DNA of 64,000 nt from an uncultured Gammaproteobacteria bacterium (GCA_964612595.1 CAZTFB010000002.1:6663-70662), one strand, 5' to 3'; positions 1 to 22,082 are shown, numbered from the stretch's first letter. Numbers and translations are program-made. The notes: generated by a model from the sequence alone, not told the origin.

Positions 1-1761
1 CTCTTCCACAACCTCTCCCACAAGGTCAACTATGTTTGTTTTTGTAAGGCTAATAAATATTCTTCCAGACTCGATACGTGAAATATTTAACATATCGTTG
101 ACGAGTTTTATTAAACGATCAACGGAATTGTATGATCGTTGCAAGTAATATTCTTGTTTTTTTGATAGTTTCCCTCCTTTACCAGCAAGTGCCAACCAGA
201 GGTATGATTTTATTGCCGTCATCGGCGTGCGCAGCTCGTGCGAAGCTACAGACACAAAATCATCTTTCATCTTATCTAATTCTTTGAGTTTGTGGTTTGC
301 TGAGCGAAGGTTATAGGTTGCGTGCTTAATTTTTTCTTGCAATGTTATGTTGAACTGTTTAATCTCATCATACTGCAGAGAATTATTGACCGCAACCGCA
401 ACTTCCGGTGCAAAGATCTTAAAGAGATGCATGTCTTCACTCGAATATGTTTCTCCGGATAGCTTTGAACCAAACCACATAAGACCAATGGGTTTCCCTT
501 CAACCAAAAGCGGAAATGCAATACTCATATCATATTCGCGCATAATGTCCTTCTCTGCACTATCCTGAAGCTCCTCAAACAATAGTATATTGTCGTCTTT
601 TTTCTTAAGTGCTGCCTCTATGAGAAAGAATATGTAGTCACCTACAAAATTATGCTCGAGTGCTTTATTCGTACTTTGGCCATACGACCATATGATCTGA
701 TTATCACGCAAAAGCAAAAGATACCCCTTTGAAATCCTCATGTCTTTGAGGAGTGTCTTGAGGATAAGGTGTGCAATTTCTTTTAATTCTAAGGTTGAGG
801 CCATAATACGTCCAAGCTTTGCAAGTAAGAACCTTGTATCATAGCGGTCTTTGAAAAAAAGCTTGTCTGTAAGTCGCTCGATAGTATGTAATAGCGGCTG
901 GTAAGAAATTGCAATAATAAATGCAAAGAATATAGACACTGCCATGTTTGTTGGTTTAATCTCGTAGCCAATAACATAATTACCTACCAAGAATATCGAG
1001 CCCGTATAAGTTAAGACAAGGATGATTACAACCACTGAGTATGCTATAGATCGAGCAACCAAAAAACGTATATCTAGAAAATTATGTCTAATAATTGCAT
1101 AAGCTGTCATAGCAATAAAAATTGCCGTATATAGAGGCATGAGCGATACAAAACTACTGGATTTGAATAACAAAAGAGGTAAGAGTATCGTGATAATGAT
1201 AAGACCGAGCATTATTAAGATTCCCAAAACTATCCAGCGTAACTGCTCTTTTTCTTTCCCATGAGCAAGTTTCAATCTTCTAAACAAAACATACACTGCA
1301 AGCATACTGAAATTCGTTGTGACTAATGAAAACAACAGCATTCCTGGTCCTGTAATAGGAAGCGGTGTGTTGTTAACTATTTTGATTCCGCTGATAGCTA
1401 ATGGAGATACCACCACGAGCATCGTTAATAAGGTAATGCTTATTGCGCCATAAAGTGCCTTAGGACTGAGAAGAATTTTTTCACTTGGAAGTGTATGTGC
1501 AAGCAGAAAAAATAATAAACTCACTGGCACAGCAAAAAGAAAGCTCATACGTGTCCAAAAAAGACTAACGTTTATTAGGTTGGGTTGTACTGAAAAAAAG
1601 TTGAAACTTAACCAGAGAGAAATAATACAAGCTAAAAGCGTAAAGATTTTGTTCGTTGTGCTTCGAGGATTACTTTTATATACGAATGCAGCTAAGATGA
1701 GGTCAACAACAATAACACAGACGATTATTGCAAAACTTGATATCTCATAAAAACTTAACAT
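1..1761 (-). CDS. Sensor histidine kinase, C-terminus cut by window edge
   Basis: Absent from the ORF track because it leaves the window. My reverse-strand translation from the ATG at 1761 stays open to nt 1 (587 codons): MLSFYEISSFAIIVC..., about 9 hydrophobic helices, a probable GAF-like middle, then H-box DDFVSVASHELRTPMTAIKSY. It starts 13 nt after the hydrolase stop on the same strand. Confidence 0.8.
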   Translation of the reverse strand, partial: MLSFYEISSFAIIVCVIVVDLILAAFVYKSNPRSTTNKIFTLLACIISLWLSFNFFSVQPNLINVSLFWTRMSFLFAVPVSLLFFLLAHTLPSEKILLSPKALYGAISITLLTMLVVVSPLAISGIKIVNNTPLPITGPGMLLFSLVTTNFSMLAVYVLFRRLKLAHGKEKEQLRWIVLGILIMLGLIIITILLPLLLFKSSSFVSLMPLYTAIFIAMTAYAIIRHNFLDIRFLVARSIAYSVVVIILVLTYTGSIFLVGNYVIGYEIKPTNMAVSIFFAFIIAISYQPLLHTIERLTDKLFFKDRYDTRFLLAKLGRIMASTLELKEIAHLILKTLLKDMRISKGYLLLLRDNQIIWSYGQSTNKALEHNFVGDYIFFLIEAALKKKDDNILLFEELQDSAEKDIMREYDMSIAFPLLVEGKPIGLMWFGSKLSGETYSSEDMHLFKIFAPEVAVAVNNSLQYDEIKQFNITLQEKIKHATYNLRSANHKLKELDKMKDDFVSVASHELRTPMTAIKSYLWLALAGKGGKLSKKQEYYLQRSYNSVDRLIKLVNDMLNISRIESGRIFISLTKTNIVDLVGEVVEE

Positions 1762-1774
1762 ACATATTAGTGTA

Positions 1775-2686
1775 TCACCCCTGGAGAAACGATAGAAGTA
1801 GTTGATTAAAATGTTTTGCTTTCTCTATAAAAGGAATGTGTCCACTATCTTTATAAACATGTAGTCGCACTAATGGATTTTTAACATGCTTTAGGGCAAT
1901 GGGATAATGCATGCTCGTATCTTTTTTACCCCACACAATCAAGGTTTTTGAAGAAATCTTATTAAAATGTGGGAGCATAAAGTACTCTTCTTTTAATTTT
2001 CCTCTGTGCAAAGCCGAAGCTATAAGATGAAATGGACTCTGTGTAGCTTTAACCATGCGAGCAGTGTGGAAATAATTCACAAAATATGGTGATAGTACGG
2101 TCTTTGGTGATGTGGTAGCAGTTCTTAAGAAGGATTCGGTTTTTTCGATACTCTTACCTAACATAAACGTCTGTAGTATCTTTGGAATTAATGGTGACAA
2201 GGATACAATGTTGAATGGCTTAGGAATGTCGCGCGATAAGCCAACTGGATTTATTAGAACAAGTTTCCCAATTCTCTTTGGATACTTTAATGCTAACTTT
2301 GCAGCAACCCAACCACCGAAAGAATGACCAACTACATCATATGGTTGTATTTTTAATAACTCCATGCAACCAGCAACGTTGTCAACAAATAGTTTTTCGA
2401 GTTGCTCTTTTCTAAAATCTACACGAGATGACATACCTGCTCCTGGCAAGTCAATGGCAATGACTTTGTATTTTTTTGAGAGGGTTGAGATATTCCGATA
2501 CCATTGACCCCACCCTAACGTTGCACCATGGAGCATCACAATTGGTCTTCCTTTCCCTGCGGTAATATAATGAATCCTCGTATCGCCAACATGTACGTAA
2601 TGTGAGGTGATGGTAGGATTAATGAAGGAAATCAATTTTTCCTGAGCAATGTCTAAAGGGCTTTTATCTGAGGGTTTCTTTGACAT
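1775..2686 (-). CDS. Alpha/beta-fold hydrolase
   Basis: ORF 1775..2728. Motifs HGATLGWGQW, nucleophile elbow GHSFGG and a late DSGH. The likely start is MSKKPS at 2686. Confidence 0.75.
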   Translation of the reverse strand: MSKKPSDKSPLDIAQEKLISFINPTITSHYVHVGDTRIHYITAGKGRPIVMLHGATLGWGQWYRNISTLSKKYKVIAIDLPGAGMSSRVDFRKEQLEKLFVDNVAGCMELLKIQPYDVVGHSFGGWVAAKLALKYPKRIGKLVLINPVGLSRDIPKPFNIVSLSPLIPKILQTFMLGKSIEKTESFLRTATTSPKTVLSPYFVNYFHTARMVKATQSPFHLIASALHRGKLKEEYFMLPHFNKISSKTLIVWGKKDTSMHYPIALKHVKNPLVRLHVYKDSGHIPFIEKAKHFNQLLLSFLQG

Positions 2687-4913
2687 TTCTTCTGGGCGAA
2701 TGCGTAATAGGCATTTTGCTGTAACCAATTCTTAAAAAAACCTGCGGTTTTTCAAGTGTGCCCAGCATTGTTGCTAATGTTTTTCGCGCATTATTCTCCT
2801 CAATCATTGCGGCATGTATTGAATGATGAACACCTCTAGTCCCTAGAAGCAATACGACTCTTTCGTAAAGCTGACCTGCTTTTATCCAATCTGAAACGAC
2901 ATCAGTCTTTGTCGCTATGACCACTATACCGGATGAATGTCGCAGCATTAATGCTTCTCTACTTTCCTCGGTTGGGCTCTCTAAGTTAAACTCGTGCATT
3001 AAAAATGGTGCCAGAAGTGATTGAATATCTGGCAAGCCGATACTAAACCCATCGTGTAACTTTGTAAAATTATTGCGAATCCAGAAAGCCAATTCTTTAC
3101 GAAATGCTGCATTCTTCATTATGTTTCGAGACGCGCTCGCAAGTTCTTTAGCAAGCGCACCTTTACTTTTTTCGTCATCAACGAAATAGAGCGAGCATTG
3201 TGAATCGATAGATAGTTTCCTTATCTCAGCAAGTACGCTGGGTTGAATTTTATGTGCTGCAAAAAATGACCGATCAGTAAAGCGCATTTCTATTTGATTA
3301 AAAAGCTCAGGTAGGTAGCTCACCTTTTTATTATCAAAATCAACTCTAATCATACAATCGCCATTTTTTTCTATAAAACTAACGTTCGTTGATAGATCAA
3401 ACCTCCCTGCAGCAATAAGAACATTCTCAAGTGCTGCACCCAAACTTATATACATTTCACGTTTGGTAGGATCTGAAACAGGTAAAATACGCTCTGGATC
3501 AGGAGTAATGAAGAGACTATGAGCATCAATATGAAATATCCACGGCTGTGTATTATGTGTAGAGGGGGCAAGTATCGCATACTCTAAAAGGAACTGTATT
3601 TTTGCAGAAATAGACTTCTTGACCGGAAAGTCATGTACATCAATGCGTTTAGCAGGATGGCTTACTTTTGCTTCGAGACTATTAATATATTGAATAAATT
3701 CATTTGTTTTTTCTTTGCGCTTCTTAACAGAATCTTCATTCATATATCCATCAAGAAAAATTTCATCAAGTGAAACGTATTTTTTACCTGAAGAAATAGG
3801 CATGCCCAAAAGTAATGCCTTCGCATTGTACGCAGCATTTACTCCTCCCAAGAATGCTGATATGCCCAGCTGGGGCCATGATGCGATAGTAGAGCCGACT
3901 TCTTTTAATGAATCTTGCATGCGTGGCGCTACACCTTCAGGACCAACTATCTTGCTGGATAACCTAATTTTTTCATCAAGTGTCAGGTTAAATGATTCAC
4001 CAAAATCTATGCCTCGTATCACAGTATCAAGGTCCATCATAGGAAGCTGTCCAAATGGCCCCTGTTTCTGATCGAGATCAAACCTATCGACATCGATAAT
4101 ACCGTTGTCACCATTGTCTGTTGCCATAAGCACTGGCATTTTAATTGCACGAGCAGCTAATCGAATAAACAATTTCATCTTAAGCTGATCCATTTCATCT
4201 ATGACGATATCGAGCTTTGCGCTACCAATAAGAAAATCTTTGATTGTGTCTTTTGTTACTCCTTCCGGGTAAAGAACCAACTTTGCATAAGGATTAACTT
4301 CGTAAATTTGTTGCGCTGCAACATACACTTTTTTTAAACCGACATAATGCAAAGGAACTCTCACTCTATTGAGATTTGATACTGAAAAAACATCTGGATC
4401 TGCAAGTTTTAAGGTTCCACCAATGCCAGAATAAGCTAAGCATAATGCAACACTATTACCCACACTAAGACCTGCAATACCTATAACTGCTCTGTATAGT
4501 TTCTTTTGCTCTTCGGGAGTTATTAAGTATCTATTTCGATACGTGCGCGCCTCAAAATAATCCCTCTCATCAAGTGTGTGGAGCAATGTTTTTGTCCACG
4601 GATAATAGACCCATGTTCCAGCGTTGTCATAATTGCTACTCTTTCCTACATATTTTTGCTGAAACTTTTCTAGTGGCTTCAGGGATTCTGCAGAGCCTTC
4701 TTTATATTGAGGGTTTTTGAGATAGAAAAGTTCAGAAATCTGATCCTTTAACGTATCGTGAACATAAAGCACCTCGTACTCTTTGATGAATGCCGCAAAT
4801 TTTTTGACAAAGTCTTTATTCTTAGTTGGAAAAATTGAAGGTGTTGGAGGAAACTGAAGATGATCTGTAATTGATCTATATGTTTTTTTTGAAAGTAGCT
4901 CAGAAATATTCAT
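2664..4913 (-). CDS. ThiF/E1-like adenylyltransferase fused to a nitroreductase-like C-terminal half (Rv1355c/MoeY-type architecture)
   Basis: Rossmann segment GIAGLSVGNSVALCLAYSGIGG..LADPDVFSVSNLNR is typical of ThiF/MoeB. The C-terminal half carries the nitroreductase signature APSTHNTQPW. 749 aa. Confidence 0.7.
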   Translation of the reverse strand: MNISELLSKKTYRSITDHLQFPPTPSIFPTKNKDFVKKFAAFIKEYEVLYVHDTLKDQISELFYLKNPQYKEGSAESLKPLEKFQQKYVGKSSNYDNAGTWVYYPWTKTLLHTLDERDYFEARTYRNRYLITPEEQKKLYRAVIGIAGLSVGNSVALCLAYSGIGGTLKLADPDVFSVSNLNRVRVPLHYVGLKKVYVAAQQIYEVNPYAKLVLYPEGVTKDTIKDFLIGSAKLDIVIDEMDQLKMKLFIRLAARAIKMPVLMATDNGDNGIIDVDRFDLDQKQGPFGQLPMMDLDTVIRGIDFGESFNLTLDEKIRLSSKIVGPEGVAPRMQDSLKEVGSTIASWPQLGISAFLGGVNAAYNAKALLLGMPISSGKKYVSLDEIFLDGYMNEDSVKKRKEKTNEFIQYINSLEAKVSHPAKRIDVHDFPVKKSISAKIQFLLEYAILAPSTHNTQPWIFHIDAHSLFITPDPERILPVSDPTKREMYISLGAALENVLIAAGRFDLSTNVSFIEKNGDCMIRVDFDNKKVSYLPELFNQIEMRFTDRSFFAAHKIQPSVLAEIRKLSIDSQCSLYFVDDEKSKGALAKELASASRNIMKNAAFRKELAFWIRNNFTKLHDGFSIGLPDIQSLLAPFLMHEFNLESPTEESREALMLRHSSGIVVIATKTDVVSDWIKAGQLYERVVLLLGTRGVHHSIHAAMIEENNARKTLATMLGTLEKPQVFLRIGYSKMPITHSPRRNVKETLR

Positions 4914-4915
4914 AA

Positions 4916-6448
4916 TTATTTAATCTTAGATACCCATCTTTGCTTGGTACCTGGTTTAAAATAAAGTGGGTCTTCATACTTCCACAAAACAATTTTTGGC
5001 AGCACTTTCTTTCCTTTTTGACTATATGTCTCTCTATACTCTGAACTTTCAATAACAAGGCTCTTAAAAATTATCTCCTTTAGCTTTTTTGTAAGTGCTT
5101 TGTCTGGTAGTTTATTGCGCTTCATTTCGATATGTATAATCAAAACCTGATCTTGATTCTTATCAAATTCTACCATCATTGTGAATTTTGTGGTAATGCT
5201 ACTTATTAAAGGACTTCGTTGTAGGGCCTTTCTTATTGTCTCGGGATATATTTGGAATGCATGAAAACTAACTGAGAAATCGCTTCGCTCATACACGTAT
5301 ACAAATGGTAATTGTGAAACAGTATGAGAAATTTGTGCACGCTCCGTATCTTCTGATAGATTACGCCCCTCCGTATCGTACATTTTTTTTAGTTCAGAGA
5401 AATTAAAACACCCCCCATTATCTTTCAAATCGTAACGAACTAATGGTATACCACTACGTGCTGAGCAAAGTAAACCATTCTGCATTGTCTGTTCAAAGTA
5501 AAATAGCCGCGGATCATATTGACATAATGTGGGGAGCCTATGTGTTGGACCAAATAGGTCTTTGTATAGTCGTGATGATTCTATAGCTCGGCGGCGAACC
5601 ATTATTGCAAGAGGTGTCTCATAAGCCATAGTGCCTAAATCCACAGTCCCATAATGATTCAAAGAGTCCGTATACACATTGGATGACCCAGCCTTTTCTA
5701 AAATAGAATCACGAAATTCTTCAGAGAAACCTTCTGCTGAAAATACAAATTTAATATTATATTTTTTCCAATCTAAACCAGCAGCTTCGCCATCATCTAA
5801 AACATCTTTCAAAAAGGGCCCGTACGAGCCAATGATTATCTGATCGTAGTACGAGCCAAGGTTCTTTATAGATTTAATAATTTCCTCTTTATGTATACCG
5901 GGTGTAATAATGCTCATATCATAATTTCCGCGGTCAGAAAGGTATTGAAGAGCTTGATACGTAAAAACTCCGCCTATCCAAATACCCATTGGAAAACCAA
6001 TAATATACAATGTTGATTGCTTGTGAATCTTGAAATTAGTTCTAAGATATACCTCCGCTACCGCTGCATATTGGAGATCTTGTTCCTTAGTACGCGGAAA
6101 ATAATAGGGATCACCAGTTGAGCCTGATGTCGCCGATACGCTGTACTGTCCATGAGGGAAGCTACCATCCCAACTCAAATCTTTTAATGAATAACAACGC
6201 AAATAATTATTTTTATCAAGCGTAGGCAATTGCTCAAAATCTTGTATAGTTATTATTTTACGAGGATTGATATTATATTTTTGTAGAAAATCTTTATATG
6301 CAGGAACCCTAATCGACATATCATGAAACAACTTTAAAGCACTTTCTTGACCATTCTTAATCCAGAATTTTTCATTCTTTTTAAGATAGTTATCGCTCAG
6401 TTTTTTTCCGTTCAAATATGAATTGTGTAGACTACTCATGATGATCAA
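4916..6448 (-). CDS. Adenylate-forming enzyme, PaaK / coenzyme F390 synthetase-like
   Basis: P-loop-like SATSGSTGDPYYFP; 510 aa. There is a 2-nt gap to the downstream gene and an ATGA overlap with the upstream gene. Confidence 0.65.
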   Translation of the reverse strand: MIIMSSLHNSYLNGKKLSDNYLKKNEKFWIKNGQESALKLFHDMSIRVPAYKDFLQKYNINPRKIITIQDFEQLPTLDKNNYLRCYSLKDLSWDGSFPHGQYSVSATSGSTGDPYYFPRTKEQDLQYAAVAEVYLRTNFKIHKQSTLYIIGFPMGIWIGGVFTYQALQYLSDRGNYDMSIITPGIHKEEIIKSIKNLGSYYDQIIIGSYGPFLKDVLDDGEAAGLDWKKYNIKFVFSAEGFSEEFRDSILEKAGSSNVYTDSLNHYGTVDLGTMAYETPLAIMVRRRAIESSRLYKDLFGPTHRLPTLCQYDPRLFYFEQTMQNGLLCSARSGIPLVRYDLKDNGGCFNFSELKKMYDTEGRNLSEDTERAQISHTVSQLPFVYVYERSDFSVSFHAFQIYPETIRKALQRSPLISSITTKFTMMVEFDKNQDQVLIIHIEMKRNKLPDKALTKKLKEIIFKSLVIESSEYRETYSQKGKKVLPKIVLWKYEDPLYFKPGTKQRWVSKIK

Positions 6449-7500
6449 CTTTTACTTTGAAACATGCGCTCAGTTAGATGATTTGCAGCTCTACTCATAC
6501 TGGTATTATGTGTGTGGGCATAGTTAATTACATTCTGTAAATTCGTACCGACTTTTTTAATCTGTTCATCTAAATCGTGTTTGTTGAGCTTTTCATGCTC
6601 ATACTCATATACGACACTCATTACACCTCCCGCATTCACGACATAATCAGGTGCATAAAATATTCCCATTTGATGTAATTTATCCCCGATCTCATCATTT
6701 TCTAACTGATTATTGGCACTGCCTACAATAAGTGGAGATATAATCTTATTAATACTTTTGCTATTGACCACTCCTCCCATTGCACATGGGCAAAAAATAT
6801 CTGTTTTTTGTTTATAGATATCATCTGGGGATACCACGATAATGTTTTTATAGAGCCCTAGGTATTGGTTAACAACTTTCTTTTGTGTGTCGGCGATGTA
6901 TATGGATTTAACTTTATTATGTAATGACTGTATAAGCTTTGCTCCAACCTTCCCCACACCTTGTATTGCAATCGTTTTTTCACTCATGTCCTCTGTGCCA
7001 AAGACTTCCTTAACAGCAATATTCAAACCACATAATAGACCTTTCACCGTATATAGCACTGGATCAACTTTTGTACCCACAATAAATTGTTTGCTCACTT
7101 TTTTCATTGCTTTTACATCTTCATTCGAAACACCTACATCTGCTCCAGTAATAAATCGTCCTGATAAAAAATTAATAAATCGAGCATAACGTAAAAGTAA
7201 CGCCCGTTGCTCAGAGGGGTTAGTTAATGAAGAAACAATAATTCCTTTAGCTCCACCATATGGTGTTCCCGCCATTGCATTTTTATACATCATTGTCTTT
7301 GCGAGCCTCAGGGCATCCTCTACTCCATCTCGATATGAGGGATATTGCCATACTCTTGTCGCACCAAATGCAGGAAAGTCCATATTCAATCTATAGAATG
7401 CTACAAAGCCTTGAGCACCTGTCGGAGGATCAATGAAGGTAGCTAAGGCAGCATGTTTATCATAGTTTTTATAGGTCGTCACATTTAGGTCTGTAACCAT
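6445..7500 (-). CDS. Glu/Leu/Phe/Val-family amino-acid dehydrogenase (Leu/Phe-dehydrogenase size class)
   Basis: Catalytic-Lys motif TPYGGAKGII and NAD fold AIQGVGKVG; 351 aa. This is the first gene of the minus-strand operon. Confidence 0.8.
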   Translation of the reverse strand: MVTDLNVTTYKNYDKHAALATFIDPPTGAQGFVAFYRLNMDFPAFGATRVWQYPSYRDGVEDALRLAKTMMYKNAMAGTPYGGAKGIIVSSLTNPSEQRALLLRYARFINFLSGRFITGADVGVSNEDVKAMKKVSKQFIVGTKVDPVLYTVKGLLCGLNIAVKEVFGTEDMSEKTIAIQGVGKVGAKLIQSLHNKVKSIYIADTQKKVVNQYLGLYKNIIVVSPDDIYKQKTDIFCPCAMGGVVNSKSINKIISPLIVGSANNQLENDEIGDKLHQMGIFYAPDYVVNAGGVMSVVYEYEHEKLNKHDLDEQIKKVGTNLQNVINYAHTHNTSMSRAANHLTERMFQSKS

Positions 7501-7534
7501 AAAAGAGGATTATAACATAGTTGTGGATGGCTCC

Positions 7535-7563
7535 TTGACATTTATTATATAGTGACATAGACT
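7535..7563 (+). promoter_or_regulatory. Sigma70-type promoter of the response-regulator gene
   Basis: TTGACA (7535-7540), 17-nt spacer, TAGACT (7558-7563). The ATG is at 7574, so the leader is very short and has no SD. Confidence 0.55.
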
Positions 7564-7573
7564 TATTGTTAAT

Positions 7574-7939
7574 ATGCATAAACTTTTGGTGGTCGATGAT
7601 GACGAATACATTCGAGATTTGTACGAAGAAGTATTAAAAGACGCTGACTTTGATGTTGATACCGCTATAGATGGTAAAGATGGTCTCGAAAAAATAACGT
7701 CCGGATCATACGACCTTATCTTACTCGATATTATGATGCCAAAGATGGATGGCGTCGAGGTACTCAGAAATCTTTCAGAGAATTCAAAGACAAACGCATC
7801 TAAGGTAGTGCTACTTACCAACCTCGCACATGATCCTGTTATGAAGGAGGCGCTTAGCCTTGGTGCAAAAGCATATCTTATTAAAGCCGATATGACTCCT
7901 GATCAACTCGTTGAGAAGATTAAAGAATATCTTAAATAA
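7574..7939 (+). CDS. Single-domain response regulator (CheY-like receiver only)
   Basis: LLVVDDDEYIRDLY...DLILLDIMMPKMDG...LIKAD; 121 aa with no output domain. Confidence 0.9.
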   Translation: MHKLLVVDDDEYIRDLYEEVLKDADFDVDTAIDGKDGLEKITSGSYDLILLDIMMPKMDGVEVLRNLSENSKTNASKVVLLTNLAHDPVMKEALSLGAKAYLIKADMTPDQLVEKIKEYLK

Positions 7940-10912: not shown

Positions 10913-11674
10913 TCAGATACTTTTTTTCTCAAACCCATTTGCGACTTGGCGAACTACTCTCTGGTGTGCAAACTGCTCCAATGCTGATCTTAAAATAACA
11001 CCAGTTTTAATCTTCTCTGGCTTAATATTTTCAGGCTCTGCTACATAGTCACTATATAACCTCGTTCTTTCAATCAATCCTTCATGTGTTAATTCTGGAT
11101 GAAATGTAAACCCATAAGTTATATCGTTAAACCGTGCCGCTTGTATGGGACATTTATCACTATATGCAAGACGAATAGCTCCATCTGGTAGTGAAACTAC
11201 CGAAGTTTTGTGTCCTAACACAGCTTTAAACGGAGCTTGTAGCTGTGAAAATATCACATCATTTCTTCCTTGCTTAGTAAGGTTTACTTTAAGCAATCCC
11301 CCTTCAGCCATACTCTTATTTACTTCAAGCCTACCGCCCAAAGCATCAGTCATAATCTGAAATCCAAAACATATACCAATAAGTGGCTGACCATTCGCCA
11401 CTATATGGCGAATGAGTGGAATAAGCTTCTTCCTAGCAATTGCAAGTTTTTTTTTGCCTAAGGCATCAGTGCTTTCATACCCTGCCTCTCCCCAACCACC
11501 AATGATCCAAATATTGTTATTCGTATGTTTCGCAATTTTTCTCGTGTTAAACGCACTATTCAACACGTTTAGAAAAGTGAATCTTGAATATTGGAGTCCA
11601 CACGTATCGTATATGCATTTAACCTCATGAGGTCCAGATGCATCTGTGCGAAATTGGATTACTGTAATGTTCAT
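10913..11674 (-). CDS. Class I glutamine amidotransferase-like protein
   Basis: Nucleophile elbow PLIGICFGFQ and a late FHPE motif. ATGA overlap with the upstream gene. Confidence 0.75.
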   Translation of the reverse strand: MNITVIQFRTDASGPHEVKCIYDTCGLQYSRFTFLNVLNSAFNTRKIAKHTNNNIWIIGGWGEAGYESTDALGKKKLAIARKKLIPLIRHIVANGQPLIGICFGFQIMTDALGGRLEVNKSMAEGGLLKVNLTKQGRNDVIFSQLQAPFKAVLGHKTSVVSLPDGAIRLAYSDKCPIQAARFNDITYGFTFHPELTHEGLIERTRLYSDYVAEPENIKPEKIKTGVILRSALEQFAHQRVVRQVANGFEKKSI

Positions 11675-13275
11675 CGTTGTAATTGCTCAATAACATTCAA
11701 ATCACATGATCTACTCACACCTTCAATTATACTGCGAAATTTTTCATGCACTTGAGGTTCAGCATTTGGTCTCATTCCCAAGACAACCGAAGTAATTGCT
11801 CCTTGATCATTATGTTCAACAGGCAACCTTGGCGCGATAAACATATGGTCATGCAATAATTTTTCGTTCATTTCTTCTATCCATTTAACGAGTTCTTGGG
11901 TTGTGGATACTCTGTCTGGAGCATGTACGAAGTCCCATACGGCAAACCCGCCAACTCTTCCATCAGGCAGGGGTTTGCCATAGAATGCTTGAATATCGGC
12001 ATAGGTGATGTCGTCAGCGTTTCGATTTGCAAGTCGATTTTCATATAATAACAGAGGCCAGACTGACAATGACAATGAAGTCATACGTGGATTACATTCT
12101 GCTATCCCCACCTCAATAATTTCATCTTTATATAAATGCATTAGCTGTGGATTTTCCCTCATGAGTCGGAGTAATTGTTGTTCGTGCGCCCCTGCAATCA
12201 TATAATCTATACCTACATGAGCGGATTCTGTCGTGTCACCAACAGCCGTACTCACAATAGCTTCGGTAAGTGCTTGCATATAGTCTTGATATTTAATCAT
12301 TGGTGAGTCTGAATCGATAAACTTGCCGTTCTGAGAAGATCCGCCCACACAACTCCCATTTTCAATAAACTGTTCTGTAACTGGTAACGGCATTACCTCG
12401 TCGTAATTGACATATGTTCCTACGCTTGGACTGTCATCCAAATCAACATAGCGAGTCAATTTACATTGTCCACCAGCTTCAACTAATAATGCACCTAAGA
12501 CGTTTTGCGCTTCACCATAACTATCAAACTCTTGCACTTTCTTATCAGCAAGTATCTGCCACTTGTCATCTTTTTGTCGCAATATCACTGTTCCATATCC
12601 TCCGTCTCCACCTGATTGTTGTACTACTACCCCTAAGGGATATTCTCCTGCCTCAGGATCTATTTCAGCAAAAGCTTCATACATTTCTCTACTAGCTTCA
12701 AGGCGTTGATCAATTGCGGATAATGCGTCTTCGGGGACCTCGATAACACTGTAGGGCAACACCGTAGTTGGATGAACATCGTGATCAATAGAAACAGTAC
12801 TCGTAAGATCATGATTATCAAGTACGAAATCAGCAAAACTTACTTTATTTTTGAGCATAGCAGCCGTCTCATGTGGAAGCCCCCATATAGTATTCCCTTC
12901 ATATCGCTCTGCAGAAAAATAAGGCACCACCACTGGGCTATCTGACTCTATATCTAAAGGTATTTTTTTTTCGGTACCATCTGTTATTACATACTGCACA
13001 CCTAAATGGCGTCTGCCCCATCCCACCAACGCTATTACATCGTTTAGATTTTGGGCATTTGCAGAAACCATTGCACTATCACCAGAGCGAAGAGGCATGA
13101 GATGATGAAATGCTCGCTGTCCATAATGATGATCAATCATTACTACTTTATCAGGAGGAAGTGTTACCAAATCACTGACATTGTGTTCCAGTCGTGCGAC
13201 TGGACCCTTTCCTTCAATGTTACCGGCACTACGTAAAGTGGGTATTTGCCTTCCTGGCATTGATTCTGTACTCAT
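11671..13275 (-). CDS. Putative ATP-grasp-type carboxylate-amine ligase
   Basis: 534 aa. The only family clue is the ATP-grasp-like Mg-site motif IIEVGIAECNPRMTS near the C-terminus. Translationally coupled to the GATase gene. Confidence 0.4.
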   Translation of the reverse strand: MSTESMPGRQIPTLRSAGNIEGKGPVARLEHNVSDLVTLPPDKVVMIDHHYGQRAFHHLMPLRSGDSAMVSANAQNLNDVIALVGWGRRHLGVQYVITDGTEKKIPLDIESDSPVVVPYFSAERYEGNTIWGLPHETAAMLKNKVSFADFVLDNHDLTSTVSIDHDVHPTTVLPYSVIEVPEDALSAIDQRLEASREMYEAFAEIDPEAGEYPLGVVVQQSGGDGGYGTVILRQKDDKWQILADKKVQEFDSYGEAQNVLGALLVEAGGQCKLTRYVDLDDSPSVGTYVNYDEVMPLPVTEQFIENGSCVGGSSQNGKFIDSDSPMIKYQDYMQALTEAIVSTAVGDTTESAHVGIDYMIAGAHEQQLLRLMRENPQLMHLYKDEIIEVGIAECNPRMTSLSLSVWPLLLYENRLANRNADDITYADIQAFYGKPLPDGRVGGFAVWDFVHAPDRVSTTQELVKWIEEMNEKLLHDHMFIAPRLPVEHNDQGAITSVVLGMRPNAEPQVHEKFRSIIEGVSRSCDLNVIEQLQR

Positions 13276-13460: not shown

Positions 13461-14819
13461 ATGGACCAACCTGCACTATTCGATCGCTATGTCAAATTGT
13501 TAAAGGAGTTCGTCGCGTTGCGCAGTATTTCTACTAATCCAGAATTCGCAGGCGATATCGAGAAAACTGCACAATATCTTAATAATTTGCTTGTTGAGAA
13601 TGGATTTGGCGTTGAACTAATTACTGGCTTCGATAACCCTATTGTGCTTGCACACTTTAATCACAGTGATGGCAAAGATCGACAGCGTGTCTTGATATAT
13701 GGTCATTATGATGTGCAACCAGCAGCAAAAGAAGAAGGGTGGTCGAGCGATCCCTTTACCTTAACCGAGAAAGATGGCCGCCTCGTTGCACGAGGCGCTG
13801 TAGATAACAAGGGACAGATAATGATATATATGGCAACGGTTATCGAGCTGATTAAGCAAAATAAACTTGCTTATGATGTGAGTTTTCTAATCGAAGGTAA
13901 CGAAGAAACAGGTTCCGATCACTTTGAAGAGTTCATTCGAACACATAAGGATAGGTTAAATGCAGACTTTTTGCTTGTTTCAGATGGCGAAATCACTGCC
14001 GGCCACCCTGTTATTGAGGTGGGATTTCGCGGCGTAATAAATGTTGCGTTAACCATCACAACTTCGACTAAAGACAATCATTCGGGGCTCTATGGAGGGA
14101 TAATACCAAACGCCCCTGAAGAGCTGGCGCGTTTTCTCAACGCATTATTTATCATAGAAAATGGCGAGAAGAAAGTTGCCCTAGATGGATTTTATGATAA
14201 TCTTAAAGCCCCAACCACTGAAGATTTGGAGGCAAACAGTCTCATTCCCTTTAATGAAAGCGACTTTAATGAAACCACAGGCTCTAAAGCTCATTTTGCG
14301 CGCGAAGGTTGGAACATACATACACAGTTAGGATTCCTCCCATCACTTGAGATTACCGGCATACAATCTGGCTACACTGGTATTGGTTTCCGCAACAGTG
14401 TTCCTGGCTCTGCAACAGTAAAAATGAATGCGCGCATTGTACATGGTCAAAGTATCCAATCGGTATCGGATGCGATTAAGAAATTTGTAAGAGAGCATCT
14501 GCCGTCATACTGTAGTTATACGCTCACTGTAGGTGATGGAAATCCAGCGGTTCACATTCCTACACAGGGACTATTATTCGATAAAGCTATTGCTACGTTG
14601 GAAAAAGTATATGGAACCACTGTACTTAAAAAGTATTGCGGCGCCACTATTCCTATTGCCGCCCTCTTTGAGGAGTTATTGAAAATTCCACAACTCTATA
14701 TTCCATTAGCCAATGAGGACTGTAATATGCATGGCGCCGATGAAAATTTTACTATCGAGCTTGCTAAAAAAGGCTTGATGTTTGCTGAGCACTTTCTCGC
14801 TGACAAGCCCGCGGCTTAA
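13461..14819 (+). CDS. M20-family metallopeptidase / dipeptidase
   Basis: Motifs YGHYDVQP, RGAVDNKGQ and EGNEETGS. ORF 13434..14819, with the start taken at MDQPALF. Confidence 0.8.
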   Translation: MDQPALFDRYVKLLKEFVALRSISTNPEFAGDIEKTAQYLNNLLVENGFGVELITGFDNPIVLAHFNHSDGKDRQRVLIYGHYDVQPAAKEEGWSSDPFTLTEKDGRLVARGAVDNKGQIMIYMATVIELIKQNKLAYDVSFLIEGNEETGSDHFEEFIRTHKDRLNADFLLVSDGEITAGHPVIEVGFRGVINVALTITTSTKDNHSGLYGGIIPNAPEELARFLNALFIIENGEKKVALDGFYDNLKAPTTEDLEANSLIPFNESDFNETTGSKAHFAREGWNIHTQLGFLPSLEITGIQSGYTGIGFRNSVPGSATVKMNARIVHGQSIQSVSDAIKKFVREHLPSYCSYTLTVGDGNPAVHIPTQGLLFDKAIATLEKVYGTTVLKKYCGATIPIAALFEELLKIPQLYIPLANEDCNMHGADENFTIELAKKGLMFAEHFLADKPAA

Positions 14820-14833
14820 AAGGGTCGTGTCTC
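14805..14833. repeat. Intergenic repeat family 2, copy i (AAGCCCGCGGCTTAAAAGGGTCGTGTCTC)
   Basis: 27 of 29 nt identical to 62501-62529. It contains the stop codon of the M20 gene. Confidence 0.6.
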
Positions 14834-14838
14834 AAATG

Positions 14839-15930
14839 TTACTGTAAATAGCCAAGAGGGTTTTGCAATGCTCCACCCTTTCTTATTTCAAAATGTAGAT
14901 GAGGTCCCGTTGATCGTCCTGTTGAGCCGACAACACCTATTTGTTGCCCTTGACCCACATTTTGACCCGCATTAACGTCAATACGAGAAAGATGTGCATA
15001 TAATGTTTGGAAGCCATTGCCATGCTCAATAATAACGTGACATCCATATCCATACCCAACACATCCCGAAAAAGAAACACTGCCGGTATCTGAAGCGATA
15101 ACAGGTGGAAGTGAGCGATTCGCAATATCAAGGGCCATATGGTAATACACAGGATATTGACTGACATTTCCTGTTGTTGGCCAGATAAAACGCCCGCTTC
15201 CAGGCTGGCCAGCGACAATATTGACTCGTTGTGGAGCCTTACCTCTTACTATTGTTGGTTTCTCTTGAGGTGGTGTACCTCCTGGAACAATAAGCGTTTG
15301 ACCTACGTTGAGTGAAAACGTATCTAAATCCTCAAATTCATTGAAGGGGAAGTTGACAATTGCCTGAGCATCAACGCCATATCTTTTAGCAATAGAATAT
15401 ATGCTCTCACCTGATTTGACCTTATGCGCAACGCCAGAAACCGGCAATATTCTAAGGGCTTGGCCAGGTTTGATAGTATCTGCTTTGAGATTGTTCTCCC
15501 ATTTAATGGCGTCAACGCTAATATCAAATTGATCAGCTATGCTTGCAAGCGTATCACCATCCTTGACCTTGTACTCACGAACTTCAGCGCGGGGTTTATT
15601 TGAAATGGTAGTTTGGACCGAAAGATCGCTCAAATCTGTAGCTAAAACACTCTGTACCGACCCTTCCTGGGTTTGAAAGTAATCGGCAATAAACGGGTTA
15701 TTTTCAATAATAACGGGACCGGCAACGAGAGTCGCACCAACGAGGAGGAAAAACGAGGTGTTAAGAAACGACTGGGAATACTTACCTCTCTTAACAACTA
15801 AGAAGGCAACGATTATATCTTTGATTCGTTCGAATTTTGTTCCCCAACCATGGAGTCGGAGTTTTATATAGCCTGCAAGGAAACGAATGAACTCAGCAAG
15901 CTCCCCTGCGAAGGTCTTTTCCGAAATCAT
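14839..15930 (-). CDS. LysM-LysM-M23 peptidoglycan metalloendopeptidase
   Basis: Two LysM repeats (YKVKDGDTLASIADQF, HKVKSGESIYSIAKRY) and M23 motifs HMALDI...GSTGRSTGPHLHFEI. Confidence 0.9.
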   Translation of the reverse strand: MISEKTFAGELAEFIRFLAGYIKLRLHGWGTKFERIKDIIVAFLVVKRGKYSQSFLNTSFFLLVGATLVAGPVIIENNPFIADYFQTQEGSVQSVLATDLSDLSVQTTISNKPRAEVREYKVKDGDTLASIADQFDISVDAIKWENNLKADTIKPGQALRILPVSGVAHKVKSGESIYSIAKRYGVDAQAIVNFPFNEFEDLDTFSLNVGQTLIVPGGTPPQEKPTIVRGKAPQRVNIVAGQPGSGRFIWPTTGNVSQYPVYYHMALDIANRSLPPVIASDTGSVSFSGCVGYGYGCHVIIEHGNGFQTLYAHLSRIDVNAGQNVGQGQQIGVVGSTGRSTGPHLHFEIRKGGALQNPLGYLQ

Positions 15931-17234: not shown

Positions 17235-17846
17235 ATGCCATCACGACATGAGCGAAAGGAATTTGTTGTTGGAGGAATCTACCACATATATAACCGTGGC
17301 ATAAATAAAATGGAAATATTTCACAGTGTTAGTGATTACGCATACTTTGAGAGAGGTCTAATTATGTATTTGAGCACAGCAAATGAGCTATACCCTGCTC
17401 TACAGCGATCAACACTCCCAATGGATGCTACCCATCTTTTACTCCTGCTTCGCAGGGCGTCCCAACAGAAAAACTATGCTAACGAGATAAAGCTCTTAGC
17501 CTTTTGCTTTATGCCAAATCACTTTCATCTTCTTATACAACAGAGTGGTGAACGCTCCATTTCAAAATTCATGAAATCGCTTCAAACTAGTTATGCAATG
17601 AGTTATGGGAAGAAATATAAGCACATAGGACCACTATTCCAGTCACGCTACAAAGCAATTCATGTCAAAAATGACATATACTACAAAACCGTTCTAAATT
17701 ACATCCACAACAACCCGGCTGAACTTAAACTTTTTAAAAAAATCCCAGAGAAATACCCATGGTCAAGCTTGAGTGATTATGTTGGCAATCGAAAGCGAAG
17801 TTGGATAGTGAAAGAAACGAACCTCGAAAGGTTACGGTCTTCTTAG
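17235..17846 (+). CDS. REP-associated tyrosine transposase (RAYT, IS200/Y1 HUH family)
   Basis: HUH motif MPNHFHLLIQ and catalytic-Tyr region LNYIHNNPAE. ORF 17214..17846, with the start at MPSRHERKEF. Confidence 0.8.
   Translation: MPSRHERKEFVVGGIYHIYNRGINKMEIFHSVSDYAYFERGLIMYLSTANELYPALQRSTLPMDATHLLLLLRRASQQKNYANEIKLLAFCFMPNHFHLLIQQSGERSISKFMKSLQTSYAMSYGKKYKHIGPLFQSRYKAIHVKNDIYYKTVLNYIHNNPAELKLFKKIPEKYPWSSLSDYVGNRKRSWIVKETNLERLRSS
17818..17844 (-). repeat. REP copy b (inverted): CGAACCT-cgaa-AGGTTACGGTCTTCTT
   Basis: Overlaps the convergent stop codons of the RAYT and gdhA genes. Confidence 0.7.
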
Positions 17847-19124
17847 CATCTCGGCTGCAAGAATACGCTCAACCGCAAGAATATATGCAGCTTTTCTGAG
17901 GCTAGCACCCTTTTTATCTTTGTATTTGAGCTCTTGATACTTTTTCCACATTGCTGCGAAAGCCTTTGCCATAATTTCTTCCAACTTCGCATCAACCTCA
18001 GCCTCACTCCAGTAGTATCCCATGCGGTTTTGAACCCATTCTAGGTATGAAACAGTCACGCCACCGGCATTTGAGAAGATATCAGGCACAACTAAAACGC
18101 CATTCTCAGTCAATATCTTGTCGGCTTCACTTGTGAGCGGGCCATTCGCCATTTCTACGACTACTTTTGCCTTAATCTTGCCTGCGTTATCCTTATGGAT
18201 GACGTTCTCCAAAGCCGCAGGCACCAAAACATCAACATCAAGCTCAAGTAGCTCGTCATTTGTTATTTCCTTACCTTTTCCAAGCTCACACACCCCTCCA
18301 ACACAGTAACAATTAGAAATCTTACCCTTTTCTTCCTTGCACGCAAGTGTTGCTGCAGGATCAAGGCCTTCTTCAATATACACACCACCTTTTGAATCAG
18401 AAACGGCAACAATGCGAAAGCCTGCATCTGAGGCTATTTCAGCGAAATAGTAACCGACATTGCCAAATCCTTGAACTGCAATCGTAATCTGAGCTTTTGG
18501 CTTATCAATAACATCTTTAATTTGTTCAAGCAAGGCTTGTAGTGCAAGAACACCACCGTACCCTGTCGCTTTTGTACGTCCTTCAGAGCCACCAATTTCA
18601 AGCGGCTTACCTGTTAATACGCCAGGCTCATGATGACCGCGAATTTTTTCATATTCATCAAGCATCCAGGCCATAATCTGCCCATTTGTATTCACATCTG
18701 GCGCAGGTACATCTTTATCAACCCCAATATGAGGCTCGATAAAGGTAATGTAGGCTCGAGATAGACGTTCAAGTTCTCCAACACTTAAGTCGCGAGGCTC
18801 TACAATAATCCCACCCTTGCCGCCTCCATATGGAATGCCTGCTATGGACGTCTTCAAAGACATCCAAAGAGATAAGGCTTTAACCTCGGACTCTGATACA
18901 TTGGGGTGAAATCGAATGCCGCCCTTGTAGGGGCCGAGTGCGTTATTGTGCTGCGATCGAAATGCCTGAAACTTCTTCTTCGTACCATCATCCATGGTAA
19001 TTTCGATCTCGCCTTTGACAATATTTTGGGGTTTTTGGAGTCTAGAAAGATATTTCTGATGCTCTGCGGAAAGATTGGATTTAATGTTATTGAGGAAAGT
19101 TAAGGCATTTTCAAATGGATCCAT
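17832..19124 (-). CDS. gdhA: NAD(P)-specific glutamate dehydrogenase
   Basis: GPYKGGIRFHP, IPYGGGKGG, VQGFGNVG; 430 aa. Confidence 0.92.
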   Translation of the reverse strand: MDPFENALTFLNNIKSNLSAEHQKYLSRLQKPQNIVKGEIEITMDDGTKKKFQAFRSQHNNALGPYKGGIRFHPNVSESEVKALSLWMSLKTSIAGIPYGGGKGGIIVEPRDLSVGELERLSRAYITFIEPHIGVDKDVPAPDVNTNGQIMAWMLDEYEKIRGHHEPGVLTGKPLEIGGSEGRTKATGYGGVLALQALLEQIKDVIDKPKAQITIAVQGFGNVGYYFAEIASDAGFRIVAVSDSKGGVYIEEGLDPAATLACKEEKGKISNCYCVGGVCELGKGKEITNDELLELDVDVLVPAALENVIHKDNAGKIKAKVVVEMANGPLTSEADKILTENGVLVVPDIFSNAGGVTVSYLEWVQNRMGYYWSEAEVDAKLEEIMAKAFAAMWKKYQELKYKDKKGASLRKAAYILAVERILAAEMLRRP

Positions 19125-20198: not shown

Positions 20199-22082
20199 TT
20201 ATGGGAACGCGTCGTAGTTGTTACGACTGGGTGAGCTGAACGAGTCGTAGTTGCTGCGCGATGGGCTCGTGTAACTACTGCCCCCGCCACAACAACTTCC
20301 ACCGCCACCGTAGTCGTAACTACGGTTCATCTGTTCCTGGAGCTGTTGAGCTCTCTCGGCCGCTTCACGCGCTTCCCGAGCAGCTCGCTCCTGTTCCTGT
20401 CGCTGACGCTCGATCTCGGCTTGGCGAGCACGCTCTCTTCGAGCCATCTCTTCGTCGTAGTCGACTTGAGCGTTCCTGCCTGCGCTACGAGCTTCGACTG
20501 CTGCGCGCTGTGCGCGATCAACAGCCGGTTCGAACCACCGATCCGCAGCAAAGCCCTCACCTTCGTGGAGCAGTGCTTGTGCGCTCGATAGTCCACTCAC
20601 CGCCCTAGGGCTGTAACCAGCGAACATGCTGACCGGCCCCTGGGCCGACGAAATGGCTGACTGAGCTCCGGAACGAGCTCCCGGCCACGATGCACGAGCA
20701 GCTTCAAGCTTGGCTTGCAACGAACTGACCGCTTCATCAGCAGCTTTGGCTTCCGCTAGGTTTGCCAATGCTTTACGACCTTCGTTCTGAGCCTCTTTGA
20801 ACTGCTGCTCGGCACGGAAACGGTTCACTTTGATTAGCTGGGTGGTGACGATCTCGATGGTCACCTTGACATTGTAGACGTTGTTGGCGACCTGAGACCA
20901 CGTGGATTCATTGTGCTGCGCAGCAAGCACAGCAAGGTCGGCTCTGGCTCGACCGTTGAGCCCTTGAACCTCGCTAATACCGCTTTGCAGTTGCTCTGTG
21001 ATCAGAGCCGATTCCTCGTCGGCTGCAATCTGAGCGTCCACTTCGACATCGGCTGCTTCCGCGGTGGACTTGGCAGTCTGAGCCACCTCATACACACCTA
21101 CGAAATCAACCTTTCCTACTGCTCGAATAGCCTGCCAACCGCCTTGCGAATGCGCCTTCGCCTGAGCGAGCAATGAACTCGCGACGCTCAGTGCTTTGTC
21201 CAGCTCGTACCCACGGTTATGGACTACGGTCTGAATGTGCCTTTCAGCAGAGGCAATCGCTTGATCGGCCAGCAGAAGTGTGGGCTGGGCTTCTCGACGA
21301 GCCGTCGTGAGCCGGTCTACGTTCGCACGAGCTCCCACGACGGCATCATTCTGATTGCTCAGAGCTTCGCTAATCTGTGGGATGAGCTCGAGCGCCCTGG
21401 CGGGATTACCGATCCCCGACTGATCATCGGCTTCCGGCAAGAGACTGAGCGCCTCTGCCATAAGCTCGTCAATCGTCGATGCTTGCACGTCGATGGCTTC
21501 GATCTCTTGGCGGATGGGATCCAACCGACTATCCGGATACTCCCTGCTTTCCACCTCAAAATGCTTTTCCATCTCGTACCGAGCACCGCTAATGCCAAGG
21601 AGAAGCTTGTCCCTCTCCGCAAGCTCCGAACGGGCAAGTTCGCGACTAGCCTCAGCATCTGTGATGATAACTGAGGCAGCCTTGAGCAGCTCCTTCGCCT
21701 CACTGAGCTTGTTTCGTCCTGTGGATGCAGCTGAAATAGCCTGATCCAGGTTTGAAGTCCCCTTCGCGATAGCCAGCTCCCCTTGTGCCTCCGAAACCTT
21801 GGCATTCACCGCGCTGAGTTGGGTATCGAAGCGATCCGAATACGATTGTGCGTACCACTGATCGACCTCCTCCCACCTCAGATTCACGGTGTTTGCCGCA
21901 GCAACTTCGGCATTGATTCCATTCGTGAGCGATGTGATGCTGCGCTCACGAATCTGTGTCGGTACGGTGGTGACATACAGTCCACTCACCATAACCGACA
22001 AAGACAGAGCTAGGGCCAGACCGAGACGGGTCGGTGTTTTCACGACCTCATCCATAAGCCTGGCAAGGTTTTGAGTTGTCAA
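20199..22082 (-). CDS. Cassette B gene 1: membrane-anchored long Ala/Glu/Gln-rich coiled-coil protein with a Gly/Ser/Cys tail
   Basis: GAAGGAGG lies 6 nt before the TTG at 22082; the alternative ATG is at 22055. TM segment TRLGLALALSLSVMVSGLYV. The tail is ERQRQEQERAAREAREAAERAQQLQEQ...GGGGSCCGGGSS with SPSR(S/N)NYD(S/A)F twice. The part of the ORF above 22100 is AT-rich and probably non-coding. Confidence 0.65.
   Translation of the reverse strand: MTTQNLARLMDEVVKTPTRLGLALALSLSVMVSGLYVTTVPTQIRERSITSLTNGINAEVAAANTVNLRWEEVDQWYAQSYSDRFDTQLSAVNAKVSEAQGELAIAKGTSNLDQAISAASTGRNKLSEAKELLKAASVIITDAEASRELARSELAERDKLLLGISGARYEMEKHFEVESREYPDSRLDPIRQEIEAIDVQASTIDELMAEALSLLPEADDQSGIGNPARALELIPQISEALSNQNDAVVGARANVDRLTTARREAQPTLLLADQAIASAERHIQTVVHNRGYELDKALSVASSLLAQAKAHSQGGWQAIRAVGKVDFVGVYEVAQTAKSTAEAADVEVDAQIAADEESALITEQLQSGISEVQGLNGRARADLAVLAAQHNESTWSQVANNVYNVKVTIEIVTTQLIKVNRFRAEQQFKEAQNEGRKALANLAEAKAADEAVSSLQAKLEAARASWPGARSGAQSAISSAQGPVSMFAGYSPRAVSGLSSAQALLHEGEGFAADRWFEPAVDRAQRAAVEARSAGRNAQVDYDEEMARRERARQAEIERQRQEQERAAREAREAAERAQQLQEQMNRSYDYGGGGSCCGGGSSYTSPSRSNYDSFSSPSRNNYDAFP

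Follow-up and report, generated by a model that had tools for sequence, protein, structure and literature searches.

A candidate oxazolone (azlactone) pathway linked to a seven-transmembrane sensor kinase in the Candidate Phyla Radiation

The first 7939 nt of the DNA stretch GCA_964612595.1 CAZTFB010000002.1:6663-70662 (64,000 nt, recorded as an uncultured Gammaproteobacteria bacterium; the whole stretch is called 'the window' below) hold a minus-strand operon of four enzyme genes and a sensor histidine kinase gene, with a gene for a stand-alone receiver diverging from it. With a little better than even confidence, we read this cassette as one copy of a lineage-wide oxazolone (azlactone) module of the Candidate Phyla Radiation (CPR, or Patescibacteria), the product of which would be sensed by the seven-transmembrane (7TM) kinase and the receiver in an autoinducer-like loop. 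The initial annotation of this DNA had proposed a small-molecule or peptide modification pathway with its own sensing system and could not name it. The general inference of a small-molecule pathway accompanied by its own sensing system holds, as the domains stand and the genes are conserved together, and in outline the pathway can now be named an oxazolone module of the OxzB/TrzS type.

Our open reading frame (ORF) calls reproduced every position of the six genes and their tight packing, and all earlier domain calls were borne out by Pfam and NCBIfam searches (hits were examined for ten proteins in 1-13.3 kb) and, for the fold of the ligase, by an AlphaFold model and Foldseek. The gaps between the kinase, hydrolase, fusion, ligase, dehydrogenase and receiver genes are 13, -23, 2, -4 and 73 nt, negative values being overlaps. 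The features of the locus are as follows:

1..1761, minus strand: N-terminal 587 aa of a sensor histidine kinase, cut off by the window edge ahead of the ATPase domain
1775..2686, minus strand: alpha/beta-fold serine hydrolase, 303 aa, with a GHSFGG nucleophile motif
2664..3623, minus strand: C-terminal half of the fusion, an Acg-like single-chain nitroreductase-fold flavin oxidase (FDO); predicted C-alpha/C-beta desaturase
3624..4913, minus strand: N-terminal half of the fusion, an N-terminal extension and a ThiF/E1-like adenylating domain; predicted ATP-dependent cyclodehydratase
4916..6448, minus strand: PaaK-fold adenylate-forming ligase, 510 aa, TTG start
6445..7500, minus strand: Leu/Phe/Trp-type NAD(P)-dependent amino-acid dehydrogenase, 351 aa, with ELFV domains
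7535..7572, both strands: divergent promoter-like matches, sigma-70-like, inside the 73-nt intergenic region
7574..7939, plus strand: single-domain CheY-like receiver, 121 aa, Response_reg only

The ThiF-nitroreductase fusion and the oxazolone-synthetase family

The central gene encodes a 749-aa fusion protein. A comparison with Rv1355c, suggested in the initial annotation, proved to be the decisive lead: the fusion aligns over its full length with Rv1355c/TrzS, and end to end with Rv1355c-family proteins of Mycobacterium, Sorangium, Cytophagaceae and others. The Rv1355c-family model PRK07877 gives 382 bits (E 5.9e-114) over aa 23-617, with the next-best ThiF-type models at E about 1e-34 to 1e-17; ThiF itself (PF00899) is matched at E 1.6e-18, and aa 442-747 match NF047509, the Acg family of flavin mononucleotide (FMN)-binding oxidoreductases, at 236 bits against a cut-off of 199. 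The alignment with the Rv1355c family shows a common N-terminal extension (GxWVYYPW...H). Invariant positions in the ThiF half are a Gly loop (G148/G152), D172/D174, N180/N182/R183, K195 and E240/D242, and in the flavin half the motifs APSxxNxQPW and RxTNR (R544) are invariant. Judging from the motif rather than from a direct alignment to TrzS, D242 probably corresponds to D217 of that enzyme, and R544 is likely the counterpart of its FMN-site arginine R540; in TrzS, D217 is required for cyclisation and R540 for desaturation (PMC12856293). Among solved structures, TcdA and ThiF are nearest to the ThiF half in both sequence and fold, and Acg (PDB 2YMV) matches the fusion by sequence (3e-9) and by fold (TM-score 0.77). 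The structural neighbours reported for TrzS are likewise Acg and ThiF/TcdA (PMC12856293). AclA (9EGB) was the second-best fold match of the ThiF half, a literature search on it returning nothing relevant, and PaaA is found among the weaker fold matches of the fusion. On sequence grounds, we place the fusion in the OxzB/TrzS (Rv1355c) oxazolone-synthetase family and predict oxazolone activity for it.

The enzymology of OxzB, TyzBC and TrzS is established, the family having been described between 2021 and 2025 (10.1101/2020.06.11.147165; PMC10404671; PMC12856293). The 'oxazolone synthetase' OxzB, a ThiF-nitroreductase of Pseudoalteromonas rubra, converts N-acyl tyrosine or phenylalanine to tyrazolones or phenazolones (10.1101/2020.06.11.147165), and TyzB plus TyzC are a split version from M. 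tuberculosis (PMC10404671). In Rv1355c, which is TrzS, the ThiF half carries out ATP-dependent cyclisation and the flavin half O2-dependent desaturation of N-acyl tryptophan, the substrates being free N-acyl amino acids (PMC12856293). TcdA closes an oxazolone ring on tRNA (PMC12596934).

The cassette in the window thus resembles OxzAB (Pseudoalteromonas rubra) and TrzAS (Rv1356c-Rv1355c; mycobacteria and Rhodococcus) in its ThiF-like cyclase fused to an Acg-like flavin oxidase, its N-terminal extension, its ATP and FMN motifs and its tight operon. In contrast to these systems, which have the N-acyltransferase OxzA or TrzA, it encodes a PaaK-fold ligase and a deaminating enzyme; it also adds a hydrolase, a 7TM kinase and a receiver, and its host lineage is CPR. 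Known oxazolone clusters with separate ThiF and nitroreductase genes have a parallel in many CPR loci, where these genes are likewise split. These known clusters can end in ring-opened N-acyl-2,3-dehydroamino acids, an outcome that would be compatible with a role for the window's hydrolase, but they start with an N-acyl amino acid synthase working on fatty acyl donors (acyl-CoA or acyl-ACP), whereas the donor in the window is predicted to be a deaminated amino acid. We also considered an anti-phage defence system of the E1/E2 type. PADLOC defence models gave at most 39 bits over about 80-120 aa of the Rossmann core, for the fusion only, and no match to the other enzymes; we rejected this candidate because the similarity is limited to the generic E1 core.

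Conservation of the cassette and the supply of acid

The gene-neighbourhood comparison proposed in the initial annotation found the same gene order in many genomes with unrelated flanks. Five loci with fusion homologues of 43-57% identity (L001-L005) have dehydrogenase, ligase, fusion, hydrolase and 7TM kinase in the same order, often with a 130-aa receiver downstream, and their flanking genes are unrelated. Since this order recurs beside unrelated genes, the grouping is far beyond chance. The best-conserved gene is that of the ligase, the top 120 homologues being 53-63% identical. A ligase profile search of 1.84 billion representatives returned 769 clusters at E<=1e-30, and a scan with one genome per species found ligase relatives in at least 344 genomes. 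Named ligase-carrying records are nearly all Patescibacteria (Roizman-, Gottesman-, Woyke-, Magasanik-, Doudna-, Lipton-, Adler-, Kaiser- and Nomurabacteria, Paceibacterota and Saccharimonadales). The closest relative, L008 (OZ246401.1), is a 938-kb chromosome with 70-84% identity and a Roizmanbacteria-like gene order. Many cassette records carry the label 'uncultured Gammaproteobacteria', L008 among them, or 'Polyangiaceae', and these labels look unreliable.

In the census, the 80 best-matching loci were compared with the window proteins by tblastn, and genes were counted at species level in the 53 loci with enough flanking sequence; whether a nitroreductase or a receiver was detected hinged on the tblastn threshold, set at 1e-8. 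A ThiF gene adjoins the ligase gene in 53/53 loci, and a HisKA_7TM kinase lies downstream on the same strand in 51/53. A nitroreductase was found in 41 of the 53, a dehydrogenase in 24 and a hydrolase in 13, while a receiver-only gene lies upstream in 29/53 and downstream in 12/53. The claim of a five-gene operon therefore stands in that the genes are conserved together, but the invariant core consists only of ligase, ThiF and 7TM kinase, and nitroreductase, deaminating enzyme and hydrolase are frequent, variable modules. Natural fusions join neighbouring enzymes in varied combinations: dehydrogenase with ligase (P0381), dehydrogenase, ligase and ThiF (P0424), ligase with ThiF (P0198, P0362), ThiF with ligase (P0444), ThiF with nitroreductase (the window), nitroreductase with hydrolase (L006), and ThiF, nitroreductase and hydrolase (P0015). 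Together they chain all five enzymes in gene order, in a repeated and consistent pattern.

The ligase has 510 aa when read from its TTG start; the database copy starts at an ATG three codons later and has 507 aa. No Pfam model matched it, and the matches to PaaK, FlxY and F390 models were weak, FlxY being the best in NCBIfam; the PaaK equivalog TIGR02155 scored 23 bits against a cut-off of 646. In a Foldseek search, the AlphaFold model (27 homologues, predicted local distance difference test score 86.8) matched PaaK1 (2Y27) at E 3e-21 and TM-score 0.77-0.80. Further structural neighbours were 6SIW/6SIX ('PaaK family AMP-ligase') and ClxA (9S3L/9S45), which we take to be coenzyme A (CoA)-independent condensing enzymes of benzoxazole pathways, with GH3 amido synthetases as weaker matches. 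A TSGSTGxP P-loop and a C-terminal lysine (K502) are invariant among the ligase homologues. On the strength of the model, the PaaK fold is confirmed, and fold, P-loop and C-terminal lysine are common to the ligase, PaaK1/2, 6SIW/6SIX and ClxA. With the known PaaK-family ligases the CPR ligase nevertheless has just 14-16% identity, and it is about 80 residues longer and outside the reach of the Pfam models. An acyltransferase like OxzA or of the GNAT type was matched neither in the window nor in 87 loci at E<=1, the queries being the GNAT portions of P0069 and P0100, two homologues with a fused acyltransferase, and no conserved acyltransferase family emerged among the clustered ORFs of the 80 loci. 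Given the lack of a conserved acyltransferase, and a hydrolase found too seldom to take its place, we infer that the ligase would make the amide directly, independently of CoA, for which the 6SIW/6SIX and ClxA enzymes would offer a precedent.

What feeds the ligase is suggested by the gene ahead of it. The operon dehydrogenase has both ELFV domains above Pfam cut-offs, and the nearest solved structures are leucine (9e-61), tryptophan (5e-53) and phenylalanine dehydrogenase (1e-34); it scores 249 bits against the 600 of the tryptophan dehydrogenase (ScyB) equivalog. A second ELFV dehydrogenase of glutamate dehydrogenase size (430 aa, strong Pfam scores) is encoded at 17832-19124 on the minus strand, so that the 351-aa operon enzyme appears to be a dedicated extra copy. 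By ORF clustering, the gene ahead of the ligase encodes an ELFV dehydrogenase in 35/80 loci and a class-I aminotransferase (PF00155, E 6e-70) in another 35/80. Dehydrogenase and adjacent aminotransferase are mutually exclusive in the 80 loci; an apparent double case in L008 was discounted because the aminotransferase there is a distant paralogue, 4.4 kb away and 23% identical. In a sister cassette from Parcubacteria-type genomes (L090-L093), found via the distant fusion homologue P0045, the order is aromatic ammonia-lyase, ligase and ThiF in 4/4, the ligase being a second subfamily that is 36% identical to that of the window. A nitroreductase, fused or separate, and a HisKA_7TM kinase are present in 3/4 of these contexts. 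The lyase best matches the flexirubin tyrosine ammonia-lyase FlxA (583 bits). The flexirubin pair FlxA/FlxY has the same lyase-then-ligase order as the sister cassette and provides the best family matches, although all scores are below cut-off and the genes downstream in flexirubin clusters are for a polyketide synthase rather than for ThiF, nitroreductase and kinase. The three alternative enzymes each yield a carboxylic acid without an alpha-amino group, and the ammonia-lyase step is essentially irreversible. This common loss of the amino group is the strongest clue to the direction of the pathway, with deamination first: by analogy with phenylpropanoid-type lyase/ligase pairs, the deaminating enzyme may supply the acid that the ligase activates.

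The hydrolase matches Abhydrolase_1 (E 5e-27), has an intact Ser-Asp-His triad and is nearest to BphD/HsaD-type hydrolases. In its alignment to 2OG1, as read by eye, BphD N111 and W266, which presumably flank the nucleophile and the histidine in BphD, are replaced by His and Ile. All equivalog scores are below cut-off, which leaves the protein outside the meta-cleavage-product C-C hydrolases (BphD/HsaD), and there is a weak match to the O-acyltransferase OlsI. From related clusters of other phyla, N-acyl-2,3-dehydrotyrosines with an opened ring are obtained, and no oxazolone is detected (PMC12479983).

Coupling to 7TM sensor kinases

The kinase has a HisKA_7TM region (aa 13-231), a GAF_2 domain (324-458) and a HisKA domain (498-566, E 8e-18) with the H-box SHELRTP. 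The window ends before the ATPase domain, which is seen in the orthologues of L001-L008 only; that of L008 has 761 aa and is 82% identical. In the 80-locus comparison, GAF is absent from many cassette kinases, so that the conserved sensor part is the 7TM region. The receiver (Response_reg, E 1e-25, 84% identical to that of L008) has no output domain; read from the sequence, it has the phospho-acceptor D52, an acidic pocket (D8/D9), T80 and K103. The H-box, the ATPase domain of the orthologues and the receiver aspartate place the pair among two-component systems, and both proteins appear to carry the residues expected for activity. Because the receiver lacks a DNA-binding domain, its output is probably non-transcriptional, through protein-protein contacts.

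In the 73-nt intergenic region, a sigma-70-like match on the minus strand (7572 to 7544, TTAACA-17-TATAAT, 11/12) would serve the operon, and one on the plus strand (7535-7563, TTGACA-17-TAGACT) would serve the receiver. The former lies immediately ahead of the dehydrogenase gene and ranks first among all matches in the 9 kb scanned; in the promoter and terminator scan as a whole, match totals were at chance level, and only the position of this best match is suggestive. Type IV pilus-related genes follow the cassette directly in several genomes: a prepilin-like gene with a GFTLVE motif in L008 (15996-16724), an N_methyl pilin-like gene in L001/L004 (about 13946-15269) and PilB/PilC-like T2SSE/T2SSF genes in L002 (13831-16818). 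These genes could hint at the target of the receiver or be there by coincidence.

A related arrangement was found outside CPR. In a Cytophagaceae genome (L088) and a second contig (L089), a divergent receiver-only gene lies upstream of a ThiF-nitroreductase fusion, which is followed by a weakly GNAT-like protein of 236-239 aa, a 7TMR-DISM histidine kinase and a receiver-kinase hybrid. A metagenome scan for this Bacteroidota-type clade returned 80 further loci (L094-L173; 42-63% identity), for which no description was found in the literature. Among the 49 with at least 4.5 kb downstream, the 7TMR-DISM kinase and hybrid are present in 47, the GNAT-like protein in 46 and the receiver in 44. These loci have the fusion, the divergent receiver-only gene and the following 7TM kinase in common with the window, but the GNAT-like protein replaces the ligase, the sensor is 7TMR-DISM and not HisKA_7TM, an extra hybrid is present, and dehydrogenase and hydrolase are missing. 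The same synthetase is therefore tied, in two lineages, to different acylating enzymes and to 7TM sensors of different Pfam families, and this coupling to unrelated sensors suggests that product and membrane sensor are functionally connected. The TrzS authors had speculated about a signalling role, based on likeness to acyl-homoserine lactones and on c-di-GMP gene neighbours, and did not report a kinase linkage (PMC12856293). The autoinducer operons agrBDCA and comQXPA combine the synthesis of a signal with a multi-pass membrane histidine kinase in one transcript, as would be the case here, but their signals are peptides, the regulators bind DNA and there is no homology to the window, so that the analogy is one of function only.

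Proposed route, alternatives and the rest of the window

In the route that we propose, the dehydrogenase would oxidatively deaminate a hydrophobic or aromatic amino acid to a 2-oxo acid, which the ligase would adenylate and join to the amino group of a second amino acid without CoA, giving an N-acyl amino acid. The ThiF half would then adenylate the carboxylate of this compound, upon which the amide oxygen could close an oxazol-5(4H)-one ring, a reaction shown for OxzB, TyzB and TrzS (10.1101/2020.06.11.147165; PMC10404671; PMC12856293). The flavin half would desaturate the C-alpha/C-beta bond using O2, as shown for TyzC and TrzS (PMC10404671; PMC12856293), and the serine hydrolase may open or transfer the reactive azlactone, for example to an N-acyl-dehydroamino acid. 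In loci lacking a nitroreductase, the route would halt with the ring still saturated or draw on an enzyme from another part of the genome. The 7TM kinase, co-transcribed with the enzymes, and the receiver would most likely sense the lipophilic product, with a non-transcriptional output.

Several points weigh against this proposal. Substrates, product and direct amide formation by the ligase are all inferred. In the PaaK family, CoA ligation is the typical activity, and the reactions of dehydrogenases and aminotransferases are reversible. The lyase of the sister cassette, under all curated cut-offs, could be an aminomutase or a histidine lyase. With 382 bits against the 476 of the NCBI curated PRK07877 cut-off, the fusion receives no equivalog call and would best be described as a divergent subfamily of the oxazolone-synthetase superfamily; its identity to the aligned non-CPR Rv1355c-family proteins is just 26-29%. 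The 80 loci compared were the best matches and not a random sample, and single fused genes could be artefacts of gene calling or frameshifts. A nitroreductase was not detected nearby in 12/53 loci, nor a hydrolase in 40/53, so that the five-step route is not universal. Lastly, the kinase linkage shows co-regulation, from which it does not follow that the kinase has the product as its ligand.

The most serious competitor, which we consider rather doubtful, keeps the same enzymes and has the two-component system sense an external cue, such as host contact or stress, and switch on the making of an oxazolone or N-acyl-dehydroamino acid that serves in defence, as an antimicrobial or by acting on membranes. 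In some Proteobacteria, sub-inhibitory antibiotics do induce oxazolone production, and antimicrobial activity is known for related N-acyl tyrosines (PMC12856293); the linkage to a kinase would fit such regulation equally well. However, a receiver without DNA-binding output makes simple transcriptional control of the operon not evident, the kinase gene lies inside the enzyme operon as in autoinducer circuits, and a second phylum shows such a coupling with a 7TM sensor that is not homologous. Improbable in our view is an ordinary acyl-CoA ligase, comparable to that of the flexirubin lyase/ligase pair, with N-acylation by the hydrolase or by an acyltransferase encoded elsewhere and the remaining steps as in OxzAB. 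The PaaK CoA ligases are the best structural and sequence neighbours, FlxY and FlxA are the best NCBIfam matches of the ligase and of the sister-cassette lyase, and the hydrolase has its weak resemblance to OlsI, all of which such a scheme would explain; it sits poorly with the lack of a conserved acyltransferase in the 87 loci, with a hydrolase in just 13/53 and with natural fusions in which ligase and ThiF are directly connected.

It seems very unlikely that the operon, under two-component control, serves to degrade, salvage or detoxify amino acids or host-derived acids. Dehydrogenase, aminotransferase and lyase reactions are classic first catabolic steps and the nearest relatives of the hydrolase are catabolic C-C hydrolases, but the route would spend ATP on two activating enzymes in series (ligase and ThiF), the fusion is homologous to a proven biosynthetic cyclase-desaturase, and the BphD-specific N111 and W266 are not kept. 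We give least credence, almost none, to a peptide- or protein-directed pathway of the kind that yields peptides synthesized by the ribosome and modified after translation (RiPPs), in which the E1-like domain would activate a peptide or protein C-terminus as in MccB, PaaA or SagC, with oxidation of the product left to the nitroreductase. The substrates of ThiF-like enzymes are mostly peptides, proteins or tRNA (PMC12596934), PaaA is among the weaker fold matches, and the initial annotation had itself pointed to SagB/SagC azoline machinery. That comparison did not survive: no YcaO, SagB-type or ocin-ThiF model of Pfam or NCBIfam was matched and the nitroreductase half belongs to the Acg family, for which reasons thiazole/oxazole-modified microcin (TOMM) or azoline RiPP machinery was rejected. 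A precursor peptide was likewise rejected because the cluster has no intergenic room for its gene, the 73 nt being the only stretch, and no conserved small-ORF family was found in the 80 loci (ORFs of at least 60 aa were clustered). Homology over the full length, N-terminal extension included, links the fusion to TrzS, an enzyme with free N-acyl tryptophan as its substrate (PMC12856293).

Known beforehand is the enzymology of the central fusion; new are the proposed ligase-fed route from amino acids only, the interchangeable deamination, the hydrolase and the link to a 7TM kinase. No searchable paper describes the cassette or combines Patescibacteria, ThiF and 'biosynthetic gene cluster', the top-ranked CPR papers do not mention oxazolone, and two major Patescibacteria papers mention no component of the cassette. 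CPR bacteria have tiny genomes and very little biosynthetic capacity, and a pathway that they nevertheless keep in hundreds of species beside a sensor kinase is likely important for their lifestyle. The physiological role of oxazolones is "a major unresolved question" according to the TrzS authors (PMC12856293), and the 7TM-kinase link in two phyla makes it concrete: does the product activate the neighbouring kinase? More tentatively, it is possible that oxazolones or ring-opened N-acyl-dehydroamino acids are membrane-active signals read by 7TM kinases across phyla, CPR having a self-contained, CoA-independent autoinducer module made from amino acids only, with a receiver whose targets, type IV pili or host attachment for example, would be non-transcriptional. 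The predicted chemistry would be new in its use of a deaminated amino acid as acyl donor and of a PaaK-fold ligase in place of an acyl-CoA transferase, and the cassette could be useful for making azlactones enzymatically.

Elsewhere in the window, scans for tRNAs and Rfam families gave no matches. A class-I glutamine amidotransferase gene (10913-11674, minus strand) overlaps by 4 nt an ORF of 534 aa (11671-13275, minus strand) with no Pfam or NCBIfam match, and no Pfam model matched five further ORFs of 568-870 aa at E<=1e-5 (20199-22307, 25582-27288, 48846-51458, 57274-59400 and 59458-61698). At 24500-25500 lies a 1-kb island of 69-70% GC, in a genome of roughly 40% GC, with long ORFs open in four frames. 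One of these, a 398-aa frame at 24303-25499 (plus strand) with no Pfam match and no tandem repeats, is rich in Ala, Gly and Val and has an N-terminal signal-like segment and a C-terminal membrane anchor. The island may be a foreign acquisition from a high-GC source.

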